A stretch of 64,000 bases of DNA from Candidatus Lustribacter sp. Its GTDB lineage: Bacteria > Vulcanimicrobiota > Vulcanimicrobiia > Vulcanimicrobiales > Vulcanimicrobiaceae. The position numbers were made by a program. Positions 33,501 through 36,500 of the stretch are shown piece after piece. The first letter of the stretch is position 1. Each line of letters opens with the position of its first letter. The stretch covers positions 3,936,001 to 4,000,000 of the forward strand of contig OZ255842.1 of assembly GCA_965277805.1 (NCBI GenBank), given 5' to 3'.

Positions 33501-36500
33501 AACTGCGAACCGGTGAGGATCGCCGCCCCCGCCAGCGCTGCGCCGAGCGCGAGCGAGCCGGTATCACCCATGAAAATCTTCGCCGGATGGCGGTTGTAGA
33601 GTAAGAAGCCGAGCACCGCACCGAGCACGGCCACTGCCAAGATCGCCACGCTCGCGTTGCCTTGGCGCACGGCGATGAATGCTAGGAGCGCGAGCGGCGG
33701 CACGACCGTTCCCGAGGCGAGGCCGTCGAGCCCGTCGGTGAGGTTGACCGCGTGCGTCGTGGCGAGAATCACCGCGAGCGAAAGCCCATACCACACCCAA
33801 TACGGCACCGGACCGATGAAGAGCACCGCGTGCGGATCGGGGGTCAGCAACGCGACGTACGCGAGAAAGCCGGCGCCGATCACGGCGGTTGCGAGAAACT
33901 TCGTGCGCGCGTTCAAGCCGCGATTGCGGCCGCCGCGAATCGCCATGTAGTCGTCGATGACGCCGACCAGCGCCGAACCCGCAATCAGCAAACCGTAGGC
34001 CGCCACGATCGGATCGCGCGAGATCGCAAACGCGACCAGCGGGGCCAGCAGAAAGAGCAAACCGCCGAGGGTGGGCGTGCCGGTCTTCTTCTGGTGCGTT
34101 TGCGGTGCGAGTTCGTAGGCGTGCTGCCGCAGCGCAGCGCGCCGCAAGTAGCGTATCAGCGCCGGCGCCAGCACGGCCACCAGCGCGAACGTCACGACCA
34201 GCGCGACGAGCAGATCGATCACGCCGCACGCACCAAGGGATGCGCGCCGGCGCCGCGCCAGGCGAGGATGACCAGCGGCGTTTGTTCGTCGCCGTTGCCG
34301 GCGGGGTTGCCGAGCAGTGCCTTCTCTACCGCATCGCGCACGACGCCGGGCGACGCCCCGAGCGCCTTCGCGCGGCGCAGATCGTTGGCGTCGACGATCG
34401 CGATGTGCAATCCCAGCTCTTGCGCGAGTTCCGCGCTGACCTTGTCCGGCTCAGCGGGGCCGAGCACGATCGCACGCTCGTAGGGCGGCAGCGTGCCGGT
34501 GTAGCCGTCGATCGCGGCGATCGCTTCGCCGAGCAATTCGTAGAACACGCCGCGGCGTCCGATCGCGCGGCCGGCCACCTGCAGCACTGCGGCGCCGAAG
34601 ACGCGCCACGCGCCGACTTGGTCGATCACGAGCTGCAGCGACTCGGGCTGGTTGATCGTCGCGAGCACACCCGCGCGGCGCGCCAGCACGCGTGCGAGCT
34701 TCGAAGGACGGATCGTTTCGGCGCCGATGAAACGCCCTTGCGCGATCGCCACCGCCGTCTCCGCAATCGCGACGACGTCGCCCGGCTGCGCTAGGCCCGA
34801 GAGCGCTTCGCGCAACAGCGCGGCGAGATCGTCGCCTTTGACGATCAAGCGCGTGCGCACGGGAATCGCCACGATGCCTTCGGGCAGCGAGGGCTCGTGA
34901 ATCGCCACCGGGATCATGCCGACAACCCCGCCACGATTTGCTCCATGCGGTACATGCGCGAGCCTTTGAGCAGCACGGTATCGCTGGGCCGCCCGTTTTC
35001 GCGCAGCCACGCGATCGCTTCTTCGTTGGTTTGGTAGATCACGAGCGCGTCTTCCGCAAGGCCCATCGCACGCGCGCCCGACGCAAGCGAGGGCGCGAAC
35101 GCGCCGCCGAACAGCACGACGTCAGCGGACGCTGCCGCCGCCGCGCCGACGCTCTGGTGCATGAACGCGGCGTCCGGACCCAATTCGGCCATGCTGCCGA
35201 TCACCGCGATGCGGCGCGCCGGCACGCGCTCGCGCGCAAACGTCTGCAGCGTGGCGAGCGCGCCGCTCGTCGAGGCGTTGTAGGCATCGTAGATGATCGT
35301 CGGTCCGCCGGCGATCGCGATGCGTTCGTAACGGCCGTGCGGGAGTTCGAATTTCGGCGCAGCTTGCGCGACGGCGGACGGATCGACGCCCGCCGCCCAC
35401 GCCGCGGCGAACGCAGCGGCAAGGTTGCGCCGGTTGTGATCGCCCGGCACGTCGACGAGCAACGGAAACGCGCGCACGTCGTCACCATCGATTGCGAGCA
35501 CGTCGTCGAGGCGTACGATCGCCGCCCGTTCGCCCGCCGGCGGCCGTTGCGCGTCGATGCCGAACCACACCGGCTGCTGGCCCAACTCCGGCGCGCGCTC
35601 CCGCGAGGTGTCATCGCTGAGGTTGAGCACCGGTTGCGCGCCGCCCCCAAAGATTCCCCACTTCGTCTCGGCGAGCCGCTCGCGGCTGCCCATGATCTCG
35701 AGGTGCGCTTCGCCGATGTTCGTGAGCACGCCGATGTCCGGCCGCGCCGCCATCACGAGCGGCTCGAGATCGCGGTATTTGCGCGCGCCGAACTCGACGA
35801 TCGCCACGCGCTCGTCGCCGTCGTCGAGGGAGAGCAAGAATTTCGCGACACCGATCTCGTTGTTCTCGTTCTCCGGCGTTGCGGTTACCGGCCGGCCGGC
35901 CGCCTCGAACGCCTGCAGCGCGAACGTCTTCGTCGTCGTCTTGCCGGTACTGCCGGTGATTGCGATGACCGGACCGTTCACGCGATCGCGCGCCAGCCCG
36001 CCGAGCGCGAGATAGGCCGCCAGCGTGTCGGCAACGACGATGCCCGCTTGACCCTCCGGCAGCGCGCTCGCATCATCGACGATGACGGCCGATGCGCCGG
36101 CCGCCACGGCGGCGTTCACGAATTTGTGTCCGTCGAAACGCTCGCCGCGCAAGGCCAGGAACGTTTCGCTGGGCCGGATGTCGCGCGTGTCGGTCGAGAC
36201 CGCGATCGTGGCCGGCAAGTGTTCGCGATTGTGCACGGTTCCTGCGAGCGCGGCCAGCGCGTCGTTCGTCGGCAGCCTCATGCGCGCAACGCTCCCGAAC
36301 GCAACGAGAACGCGCTGCGTACTTCGTCGCGGTCATCGAACGGAAACCGCTCGTCGCCGATGATCTGGTAGGCTTCGTGGCCCTTGCCCGCCACCACGAC
36401 CGTATCGCCGGCGCGCGCATCGTTGATCGCGCGGCGGATCGCGGTGCGCCGGTCGAGGATCACTTCGGCAATGATGCCGTCGGCGATCGCGGCGGCAATT

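Follow-up and report, generated by a model that had tools for sequence, protein, structure and literature searches.

A CofE-like gene is embedded in the dcw cluster

The window, a stretch of 64,000 nucleotides from contig OZ255842.1 of a Candidatus Lustribacter genome, carries a complete dcw cluster in the order mraZ-rsmH-ftsL-ftsI-murE-murF-X-mraY-murD-ftsW-murG-murC-murB-ddl, in which X is the gene (and here also the protein) examined below (Table 1). The initial annotation described X as translationally coupled to murF and mraY, and both overlaps were confirmed in the sequence. On the minus strand, the ATG of X at 34917..34915 runs into the TGA at 34916..34914 that ends murF, and its own TGA at 34221..34219 overlaps the GTG start of mraY at 34222..34220. 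A longer form of X starting from GTG at 35010 is possible. We also considered that X might fill a gap in the peptidoglycan pathway, but dropped this idea because no gap was visible in the genome: ddl, murI, folC and all mur genes, including murB to murF, were found.

Table 1. Features of the dcw cluster around X in the window.
Feature	Position	Strand	Basis
X, 232-aa CofE-fold protein P0001	34219..34917	-	ORF and translation
ATGA overlap, X start codon with murF stop codon	34914..34917	-	direct sequence reading
GTGA overlap, mraY GTG start with X TGA stop	34219..34222	-	direct sequence reading
murF, 455 aa	34914..36281	-	TIGR01143, 308.8 bits (cut-off 288.6); three Mur ligase Pfam domains
mraY, 313 aa	33281..34222	-	TIGR00445, 277.3 bits (cut-off 192); PF00953
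murE, meso-diaminopimelate type	36278..37708	-	NF001126, 512.1 bits (cut-off 373)
Upstream dcw genes as a block	37705..41210	-	NCBIfam matches
ftsI-type PBP	37705-39474	-	name from a match below cut-off; best SpoVD, 438.6 (cut-off 688)
ftsL	39475-39900	-	name from a match below cut-off, 30.8 (cut-off 55)
rsmH	39897-40763	-	NCBIfam, 313.2 bits, over cut-off
mraZ	40767-41210	-	NCBIfam, 101.5 bits, over cut-off
Downstream dcw genes as a block	26349..33368	-	NCBIfam matches
murD	31881-33368	-	NCBIfam, over cut-off
ftsW	30740-31891	-	NCBIfam, over cut-off
murG	29578-30735	-	231.5, just under cut-off of 250.25
murC	28203-29585	-	NCBIfam, over cut-off
murB	27265-28206	-	NCBIfam, over cut-off
ddl	26349-27272	-	345.3 (cut-off 243)

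The position of X is fixed throughout its class

The 120 homologues of X listed were 213-237 aa long, mostly 232, and covered 92-100% of the 232-aa form. X was present in 58/61 genomes of the class, or 48/48 if only high-quality ones count. Three genomes flagged as unpublished (G014, G036 and G050) are among them; without these the tallies become 55/58 and 46/46. Among the class loci that we fetched, mraY lay downstream of X in 30/30 and murF upstream in 29/30, the thirtieth locus (L034) ending at a contig end. The claim of a fixed place between murF and mraY therefore holds wherever the flank is present. A 4-nt overlap of start and stop was available at 37 of the 42 murF/X junctions without fusion and at 35 of the 48 X/mraY junctions, counts that lean slightly towards overlap because the script takes the start nearest the stop.

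X was also better conserved than its neighbours. With the window's own locus excluded, identity was 57-73% for X, 43-58% for MurF and 47-61% for MraY, and X exceeded MraY in 29/29 comparisons and MurF in 28/28. This is the order claimed earlier, with figures that differ because the genome sets differ. Outside the class, neither murF nor mraY lay within 6 kb of an X homologue at any of 12 loci, in agreement with the initial annotation, and the neighbours varied from locus to locus. Within the class alone, X has the constant position, common strand, gapless spacing and lineage-wide occurrence of a dcw gene, and these observations support its status there as a fixed and coupled member of the cluster.

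X has a CofE fold but falls outside the CofE family

X is the sole gene in the 5.53-Mb genome that matches PF01996, at 52.5 bits against a gathering threshold of 25. The match joins residues 20-102 to profile positions 2-82 of 218 only; some relatives match positions 2-150. Both CofE equivalogs failed (NF009809, 36.9 against a cut-off of 274; TIGR01916, 34.4 against 180.65), the same numbers that had been reported before as 34-37 bits against 181-274. We then turned to a structural model of X (AF2, pLDDT 91.8). CofE structures were alone in matching it clearly in Foldseek (E 2.5e-10, TM 0.60/0.57), and a VIA comparison with 2PHN gave a Z of 15.4 and an rmsd of 3.1 Å over 185 residues with 26% identity. 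That alignment spans residues 14-231 of the model and 2-226 of the CofE chain, and the next match had a Z of 4.4.

For comparison at the sequence level, a protein word index searched with X residues 15-100 yielded only relatives of X among the 120 matches listed, and a set of 12 canonical CofE sequences was assembled from other classes of the phylum, where they showed up as weak second matches. Aligned to these with hhalign, X gave a probability of 98.4% over residues 15-188. The description of X as a remote relative of CofE thus stands, on a whole-domain structural match combined with failed equivalogs. Model and sequence together support X as a diverged member of the PF01996 fold group that has the CofE fold and lies outside the CofE family.

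Motifs of canonical CofE are partly retained in X

Comparison with canonical CofE revealed both kept and lost motifs. In the hhalign alignment the invariant GVDxSN Asp falls opposite D137 of X, the SKAEGR Arg opposite R62 (CofE G50/R51 correspond to G61/R62 and are kept), and LLPxDPD opposite P154, P157 and D158. All 12 canonical sequences aligned share the Lys and Glu of SKAEGR, which X replaces (K47 by I58, E49 by Q60). The register of the DxND motif is ambiguous by two residues, HMMER placing D176 and hhalign N178 opposite A. fulgidus D150. That residue, at the SD(S/T) strand end, and the GVDxSN Asp are said, from the 2007 work of Nocek, to bind metal in CofE.

The C-terminal third of X is unaligned to CofE, the profile alignment stopping at residue 188. 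From the DxND motif to the final RG, X has about 26 residues fewer, and the FGRxWRxGIVN, TDYRG and ADALAxxAE regions of CofE are absent or unalignable. The model of X ends opposite CofE residue 226, before R234. PMC10861534 describes R234, G153-C155 and F92 as holding the F420 head group, with the Arg of R234 stacked on the F420 ring.

Across 48 diverse members, invariant or near-invariant polar residues were T22, D47, Q60, R105, D137, D176, N178, D179, N204 and T213. From this pattern, X is likely still an enzyme. Its ligase chemistry is uncertain because residues invariant in the aligned canonical CofE are lost, and NTP-dependent ligation may have been lost or may be done differently, since the SKAEGR Lys and Glu and the FGRxWRxG and ADALAxxAE regions are missing. 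These losses, together with a pathway that shows no gap, suit a different idea, that X is a former enzyme turned non-catalytic adaptor that tethers or regulates MurF and MraY, for example by passing the soluble precursor to the membrane step, and that serves elsewhere as a membrane-anchored binding module. We consider this unlikely: ten polar or charged positions that stay (nearly) invariant at only 30-40% identity are more typical of a catalytic or ligand site.

The F420 label does not fit X

Public databases name X coenzyme F420-0:L-glutamate ligase. None of the other pathway genes passed in the genome (cofH, 34.9 against a cut-off of 374; cofD, 21.2 against 257; cofC, 24.7 against 105). cofH exceeded its cut-off in 0/61 class genomes, and the best sub-threshold matches, read in two genomes, were MqnC (455-461 bits, cut-off 428) and an MqnE-like protein, both of menaquinone synthesis. 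Canonical cofE and canonical cofD were each found in 0 of the 52 class genomes sampled. The earlier statement that organism and class have no F420 pathway was borne out by these searches. In the phylum as a whole, X was present in 119/121 genomes and canonical cofE over cut-off in 39/121, all outside the 52 class genomes sampled; cofD-like genes occurred in 38 of the 121, in the same families as cofE and beside it where read. Twelve canonical cofE ORFs, scoring 221-266 bits on TIGR01916, came from genomes that also hold X.

Could X still be an F420:glutamate ligase that works on F420 or precursors taken up from outside? The label is favoured by the names in databases, by the PF01996 match and by 44 matches to luciferase-like oxidoreductases in the genome; of five such genes read, three had their best match in an F420-dependent subfamily, at 137-143 bits and below the cut-off of 166.9. 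No F420-enzyme model passed in the genome, however. A search with PF04075 also found no match there, which has little weight because control genomes were silent too. X misses the CofE equivalogs by about 150-240 bits, cofC, cofD and cofH were not found alongside it, and genomes that make F420 hold a separate canonical cofE besides X, with cofD adjoining where read. X has neither the tail nor the loop that binds the F420 head group (PMC10861534). We regard this reading as exceedingly improbable and close to refuted: the public label is wrong, as the initial annotation suspected. Because the class makes no F420 and X sits between two cell-wall genes, X probably has an undescribed job in the cell wall.

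Fusions and relatives of X

In one genus, 5/5 genomes encode MurF and X in a single in-frame ORF of 742-820 aa, joined by a linker of 50-65 aa that is rich in Ala, Glu, Pro and Ser and varies between genomes. This fusion is genuine and limited to that genus. Other apparent fusions were rejected: Arg-rich stretches that are out of frame mark the X-MraY records P0141 and P0174 as well as the MurF-X record P0123, the X-MraY cases being mostly frameshift artefacts, and in open frames of 700-800 aa in one family (f1) MurF and X occupy different frames. The X-MraY record P0124 is clean, but under the topology assumed for MraY its X would lie on the outer side of the first MraY helix. A complex prediction for MurF and X scored 0.00 against a mark of 0.32, which weighs neither for nor against binding.

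The X subfamily comprises 760 representatives at the 50% identity level. In species genomes alignment A3 matched more than 532 stretches, and nearly all of the best 80 bear a cyanobacterial label; a scan of named genomes with the single protein P0188 gave no match. Among 86 long representatives, 51 were without a second Pfam family. Three of these 51 were inspected and each had an N-terminal hydrophobic segment, which in the one modelled is predicted to form a membrane helix followed by an Ig-like sandwich. The remainder included TPR (12), AsnB (8) and Amidase_3 (6), with MurF, deacetylase, GNAT, M20, adenylate kinase and HD_4 once each. The AsnB partner passed its cut-off at 436 bits and reached only 307.8 of the 570 bits required by TIGR03104. 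Among these partners were a CwlD-like muramoyl-L-alanine amidase, a PepV-type dipeptidase and, in one form, a polysaccharide deacetylase joined to X through a membrane segment; an S58 (DmpA-type) peptidase was among the partners or neighbours.

In a tree of the subfamily (MAFFT and FastTree) most partner types formed one clade each, which indicates few fusion events, not many. X had been described as fused again and again to peptidoglycan enzymes. That description goes beyond the data, given the 51 representatives without a second family and the few events on the tree. That some partners are not cell-wall enzymes was already recognized, and adenylate kinase, HD_4, GNAT and the PepV-type dipeptidase are examples. 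The commonest partners, the membrane helix with Ig-like sandwich and TPR, are uninformative on cell walls. The class clade lies nearest to a group that includes the forms fused to the CwlD-like amidase. In cyanobacteria X heads a same-strand run, X-GNAT-ruvX-DUF1292/3727-mltG, and the cyanobacterial form's N-terminal domain is a generic Ig-like sandwich (GAE, DsbD-alpha and ApaG-like matches) that gives no functional clue.

These architectures bear on the adaptor idea in both directions. The long flexible linker to MurF would suit it, as would the TPR repeats, or the membrane anchor plus Ig-like domain, of other lineages, which are typical interaction modules; repeated fusion to true enzymes (AsnB, the CwlD-like amidase, the PepV-type dipeptidase and GNAT) argues against it.

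Some partners also raise the prospect that X ligates a soluble peptide or amino-acid derivative unrelated to the wall (for example an osmolyte, a cofactor tail or an N-acylated dipeptide), and that its place in the dcw cluster reflects growth-linked expression only. N-acetylglutaminylglutamine amide is made by a trio of acetyltransferase/ligase, amidotransferase and peptidase. By analogy, the set of GNAT, glutamine-dependent AsnB and PepV-type dipeptidase found as partners or neighbours, alongside adenylate kinase and HD_4, may recall this trio, with the AsnB part below cut-off on TIGR03104, and the missing dcw linkage outside the class points the same way. We think such a role quite unlikely, as the class gene always has murF and mraY as its neighbours, with codons that overlap theirs, and one genus has it fused to MurF, related forms carry a muramoyl-L-alanine amidase or polysaccharide deacetylase, and mltG ends the cyanobacterial run.

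Alternatively, X could act before MurF and make or edit its dipeptide, whether it handles D-Ala-D-Ala or serves as an alternative D-Ala-D-X ligase. The MurF-X fusion is compatible with this, the PepV-type and S58 peptidases are suggestive partners or neighbours, and CofE chemistry, which joins a carboxylate to an alpha-amine, suits dipeptide synthesis. In 1/7 loci read from other classes (L154), the gene directly upstream of X, on its strand, is ddl. This association was seen once only, however, and a normal ddl resides in the same cluster as X, over its cut-off (Table 1), so that a role ahead of MurF appears improbable.

A proposed role for X in precursor modification

A functional link between X and the steps of MurF and MraY is likely, and modification of the cell-wall precursor together with these two enzymes is our best reading of X. 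Tentatively, and with somewhat less than even confidence, we propose that X is a diverged CofE fold that no longer serves F420 and acts with MurF and MraY as a carboxylate ligase on the precursor. X would be made together with MurF and MraY in the class and would work at the last cytoplasmic precursor steps. It would retain the carboxylate activation of its family, in which NTP and a divalent metal yield an acyl phosphate, and an amine would attack this intermediate. X could thereby couple an amino acid or amide to one free carboxylate in the UDP-MurNAc-pentapeptide stem peptide, candidate sites being the D-iso-Glu alpha-carboxyl, a meso-DAP carboxyl and the terminal D-Ala. Its turn would come after MurF and no later than MraY; since dcw gene order does not track the order of the pathway, lying between murF and mraY does not pin down the step. 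In other lineages, the X domain is held at the membrane by an N-terminal helix or fused to other enzymes that act on amide bonds. We infer the substrate, the reaction and the use of NTP, and the specific ligase reaction is doubtful.

The CofE family offers the closest comparison. CofE is an intertwined dimer with its active site at the interface and ligates glutamate in a GTP- and Mn-dependent manner. Like CofE, X has the whole-domain fold, the motifs GDD, GD and QGR/EGR in its N-terminal part, the Asp of (G/A)-(I/V)-D, the PxxPD motif and, in the ambiguous register noted above, an acidic motif where the central strand ends. Unlike CofE, it lies in dcw and not beside cofD, lacks the C-terminal tail, has Ile and Gln for the Lys and Glu of SKAEGR, and belongs to a genome without an F420 pathway. 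The CofE-like folate gamma-glutamate ligase (TIGR04132), of which Chlamydia 'FolC2' is a case, is a precedent for the fold acting on a substrate other than F420. X differs from that family as well: it scored 13.4 against a cut-off of 350, whereas the canonical CofEs of the phylum reached 51-72 bits, well above X, and the criterion of an absent folC contrasts with the normal folC of this genome (319.4 bits).

The proposed chemistry, NTP activation of a carboxylate followed by amine attack, is also that of the Mur ligases MurC to MurF, with which X shares an operon and a fusion (to MurF); in contrast to them, X has an unrelated fold and no Mur ligase domains. Amidation of the stem peptide is carried out by MurT/GatD and AsnB/LtsA. 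Some relatives of X are fused to AsnB, as in the latter type, and the genome gave no match for MurT over cut-off (29.7 bits, with 800 required). PMC10861534 describes the mechanism of CofE as strongly resembling the one used by the Mur ligase MurD, and the proposed chemistry of X fits for this reason. A survey of natural Mur fusions (MurE-MurF, MurC-Ddl, MurG-MurC and others) reads such joining of dcw neighbours as a sign that they act together (PMC10214165). MurF-X similarly joins dcw neighbours, but that survey lists no fusion with a CofE-like domain and its text has 'F420' 0 times (PMC10214165).

Our full-text literature search found no paper on the X subfamily. A large protein subfamily carries a wrong function label, which can falsely imply F420 metabolism in the genomes that hold it. 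X is an extra gene under strong constraint within an operon that ranks among the most conserved in bacteria, and one genus has it fused to MurF. This points to a further step or control point, as yet unknown, where wall synthesis passes from its last soluble to its first membrane step. The phylum includes a cultured relative, Vulcanimicrobium alpinus, in which a wall role of X could be tested directly. It is conceivable, if rather doubtful, that X is the first peptidoglycan peptide or amide ligase that is neither Mur-type nor ATP-grasp, decorating the stem peptide of the MurF product. If so, a second fold would have reached Mur-ligase-like chemistry on wall precursors, and the peptidoglycan of an entire class of Eremiobacterota (Vulcanimicrobiota) would be of an undescribed chemotype, as that of many cyanobacteria and Bacillota might be too through membrane-anchored paralogues.

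Coupling and conservation of X in the dcw cluster

The 232-amino-acid protein X (record P0001) lies in a full division and cell wall (dcw) cluster whose genes are all on the minus strand, in the order mraZ, rsmH, ftsL, an ftsI-type PBP gene, murE (of the meso-DAP type), murF, X, mraY, murD, ftsW, murG, murC, murB and ddl. Read in the sequence, three bases belong both to the ATG of X at 34917 and to the TGA stop of murF; in the same way, the TGA stop of X overlaps the GTG start of mraY by three bases. An alternative GTG start at 35010 would lengthen the protein; the 120 homologues listed cover 92–100% of the 232-residue form and are 213–237 residues long, mostly 232.

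Features of the dcw region and its surroundings in the window
Feature	Position	Strand	Remarks
X (P0001)	34219-34917	-	open frame, 232 codons
murF	34914-36281	-	upstream of X; TIGR01143 308.8 bits, cut-off 288.6
mraY	33281-34222	-	downstream of X; TIGR00445 277.3 bits, cut-off 192
GT2 glycosyltransferase with MshEN domain	19286-21265	-	beyond ddl
BcsB-like protein	21163-22941	-	weak match; beyond ddl
SpoIIE/PP2C-type phosphatase	41804-42700	+	divergent from mraZ
591-aa protein with Vgb-lyase-like beta-propeller repeats	42766-44541	+	divergent from mraZ
Luciferase-like oxidoreductase copy	44569-45693	+	SfnG/NtaA-like below cut-off; looks FMN-type

The cluster ends with ddl. None of the next large open frames (window 19286-26352) matched FtsQ, FtsA or FtsZ, so these genes must sit elsewhere; frames in this interval other than those tabulated matched no family.

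Of 61 class genomes, X was found in 58, among them 48/48 of the high-quality ones (55/58 and 46/46 without three genomes flagged unpublished, G014, G036 and G050); the three genomes in which it was missed are 66–89% complete. Among 30 fetched loci, mraY lies downstream in all and murF upstream in 29, the remaining locus being cut by a contig end. A start codon giving a 4-nucleotide overlap with the upstream stop was available at 37/42 unfused murF/X junctions and 35/48 X/mraY junctions, counts with a mild bias as our script chose the start nearest the stop. With the window's own locus excluded, identity was 57–73% for X, 43–58% for MurF and 47–61% for MraY, and X exceeded MraY in 29/29 loci and MurF in 28/28. 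Both the coupled, fixed position and the stronger conservation claimed in the initial annotation thus hold. Two copies are interrupted, one by an in-frame TAG (G140:C2:824650-825282) and one in three pieces with a TGA (G042:C2:471459-472103, in a genome 81% complete); either sequencing error or rare breakage of the gene may account for them.

Fusions of X to its neighbours

In one genus, all five genomes examined (G006, G008, G016, G018 and G034) encode MurF and X in one reading frame of 742–820 codons. The linker of 50–65 residues is rich in Ala, Glu, Pro and Ser and differs from genome to genome, and three further genomes of this family keep the two genes in separate frames. This fusion is genuine and inherited, and here the earlier report of fusions stands; some other records are suspect. 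The X–MraY records P0141 and P0174 and the MurF–X record P0123 carry Arg-rich stretches of the kind that GC-rich DNA typically gives when translated out of frame. Open frames of 700–800 codons in family f1 were ruled out because MurF and X occupy different frames there. P0124, from a 492-kb NCBI contig, is a clean single-frame X–MraY protein of 556 amino acids without frameshift debris, and only about 30 hydrophobic residues precede its MraY cytoplasmic loop. If the N-terminus of MraY faces outward, as is usual, the X domain of P0124 would lie outside the cell, an odd topology; we counted none of these records as evidence of fusion.

X has a CofE fold and is not CofE

An AlphaFold2 model of X built on 48 diverse relatives reached a mean pLDDT of 91.8. 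Foldseek against the PDB matched it only to CofE (coenzyme F420-0:L-glutamate ligase) of Archaeoglobus fulgidus (2PHN, 2G9I and 7ULD; E = 2.5e-10 to 3e-9, TM about 0.6), with the next match at E of about 1. An independent aligner gave Z = 15.4 and an r.m.s.d. of 3.1 Å over 185 residues (model 14–231 against chain 2–226), the second-best match scoring Z = 4.4. The model thus assigns X a CofE fold across the whole domain. Pfam PF01996 aligns residues 20–102 with profile positions 2–82 of 218, so that only the first third of X is recognizable by sequence. The initial annotation described a remote relative rather than a CofE, and this agrees with what we find: the fold is that of CofE, yet X scores 34.4 and 36.9 bits on the CofE equivalog models, against cut-offs of 180.65 and 274.

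For a direct comparison we used canonical CofE genes, twelve in all, from genomes of other classes in the phylum (221–266 bits on TIGR01916). Profile–profile alignment (hhalign) joined X 15–188 to CofE 3–164 with 98.4% probability (E = 4.6e-15). Common to both are GDD, GD, the Gly-Arg of SKAEGR (G61 and R62 in X), the Asp of GVDxSN (D137) and a PxxPD motif (P154, P157 and D158). Residues D109, D150, T151 and E208 of CofE reportedly bind metal (attributed to Nocek, 2007). An acidic motif in X, D176-x-N178-D179, falls where CofE has a strand-end Asp, in a register uncertain by two residues: A. fulgidus D150 pairs with D176 by HMMER and with N178 by hhalign. In place of the Lys and Glu of SKAEGR, which do not vary among the twelve CofEs, X has I58 and Q60. 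The FGRxWRxGIVN, TDYRG and ADALAxxAE regions of CofE have no alignable counterpart in X, which is about 26 residues shorter there and also stops short of the CofE tail. In the A. fulgidus enzyme, R234 from the tail holds the F420 ring together with G153–C155 and F92 (PMC10861534); X has D179-L180-R181 in place of G153–C155.

No F420 pathway accompanies X

X is the sole PF01996 gene of the 5.53-Mb single-contig genome, in which cofH, cofD and cofC were not found (best scores 34.9, 21.2 and 24.7 bits; cut-offs 374, 257 and 105). No cofH passed the cut-off in any of 61 class genomes. An adjacent gene pair scores 255–330 bits on the CofH model in all 60 others; in the two genomes where we read it, one member is MqnC (455–461 bits, cut-off 428) and the other is MqnE-like (401–417 bits, cut-off 434.55), a pair of the futalosine route to menaquinone. 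Unlike these 60, the window's own genome holds nothing above 34.9 bits on that model and may rely on a different menaquinone route or make none of this quinone.

The phylum supplies a natural control. Across 121 sampled genomes, X occurs in 119, canonical cofE above its cut-off in 39 and cofD-like genes in 38; the latter two occur in the same phylum families (f6 and f18–f21), are neighbours in the contigs compared, and were found in none of the 52 sampled genomes of X's own class. In one example, cofD and cofE stand side by side (G116:C118:1921-4132), and such genomes carry a 400–450-amino-acid X homologue elsewhere. Because a normal cofE serves where F420 is made and X is present there as well, the F420 label on X is, with high confidence, wrong; this coexistence is the strongest single argument against it. 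The initial annotation had reached the same verdict on the label and on the pathway, with CofC, now searched, left as a gap.

One caveat is that luciferase-like oxidoreductases are greatly expanded in the genome (44 matches). The best match for three of the five genes read was the F420-dependent subfamily TIGR03619 (137–143 bits, cut-off 166.9), and none of the 44 passed the cut-off of an F420-dependent subfamily. Nothing in the genome passed three F420-enzyme models; a PF04075 search gave no match, and control genomes were equally silent.

Partners and neighbours in the wider family

Searching 1.84 billion representatives in full yielded 760 family members at E ≤ 0.001 and 422 at E ≤ 1e-10. 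No second Pfam family was found in 51 of 86 long representatives; the others carried TPR (12), AsnB-type (8) or Amidase_3 (6) domains, a piece of MraY (3, suspect), or, as single cases, MurF, polysaccharide deacetylase, GNAT (P0249), adenylate kinase, M20 peptidase or HD_4. NCBIfam identifies the AsnB partner, over the cut-off at 436 bits, as a true glutamine-dependent asparagine synthase, and others are a CwlD-like amidase and a PepV/Sapep-type dipeptidase. The amidase fusions, from Bacillota metagenome genomes, have no evident signal peptide. In each of three inspected forms without a second family, basic residues come after an N-terminal hydrophobic helix, a pattern suggesting that the remainder is cytoplasmic; a model of one shows the helix, an Ig-like sandwich and then the CofE fold.

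A FastTree phylogeny of 139 X domains, with 12 CofEs as the root, placed the class clade (7 representatives) with amidase-fused forms and a small number of stand-alone sequences (support 0.82). TPR forms made one clade, AsnB forms two and membrane-anchored forms one large clade, so partners are diverse and each arose few times. The picture of recurrent fusion to peptidoglycan enzymes in the initial annotation overstates this.

The cyanobacterial alignment gave at least 532 matching stretches in named species genomes, and the best 80 of these were almost all labelled cyanobacteria, mostly filamentous genera. A gene of 395–452 amino acids directly follows X on the same strand in 14/15 loci laid out, and a four-gene series is complete in 11/15; Pfam identified GNAT in 2/3 loci tested and RuvX, DUF1292/DUF3727 and the murein transglycosylase MltG/YceG in 3/3. 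Such same-strand runs, from membrane-anchored X to mltG, occur among loci L039–L116 (for example, L044:5917-11130). Neither these neighbours nor murF or mraY within 6 kb were found at 12 loci that belong to the other classes of the phylum of X. By Pfam, seven of these 12 include one with ddl directly upstream of X, two with a NAGPA-domain gene nearby and several with peptidases. The NAGPA (phosphodiester glycosidase) gene lies just upstream of X in L154:5766-9210 (G075) and L152:3300-5660 (G064), with ddl between the two in one of them.

A probable role at the MurF–MraY step

X is encoded between murF and mraY, co-translated with them, more constrained than either, fused to MurF in one genus and nearest to amidase-fused forms; it therefore probably works on the MurF product or at the hand-over from MurF to MraY, the best-supported reading. 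The chemistry of the CofE fold uses an NTP to activate a carboxylate, which an amino-acid amine then attacks; authors of structural snapshots of CofE stress its likeness to MurD (PMC10861534). By such chemistry X would join an amino acid or an amide to one of the stem peptide's free carboxylates. We regard this ligation as a tentative proposal, weakened because the SKAEGR Lys and Glu are lost and no pathway gap is visible: the genome has ddl, murI, folC and every mur gene, and MurT was not found in it. X might instead be a non-catalytic adaptor, contribute to the dipeptide supply of MurF, or ligate a soluble peptide unrelated to the wall.

Full-text literature searches found no paper on the X subfamily, nor any on a dcw cluster with a CofE-like gene. 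The available part of a survey of natural Mur fusions has no mention of an X-type fusion, with 'F420' occurring 0 times (PMC10214165), and that of the report on the first cultured member of the phylum describes a Gram-negative envelope with thin peptidoglycan and no wall chemistry (PMC9758169).

The cell-wall-precursor role proposed in the initial annotation is thus the reading that context supports best, with the stem-peptide chemistry itself conjectural. The proposed cell-wall role for X is well supported by context, and X is, within a known fold, a functionally new variant open to direct test.
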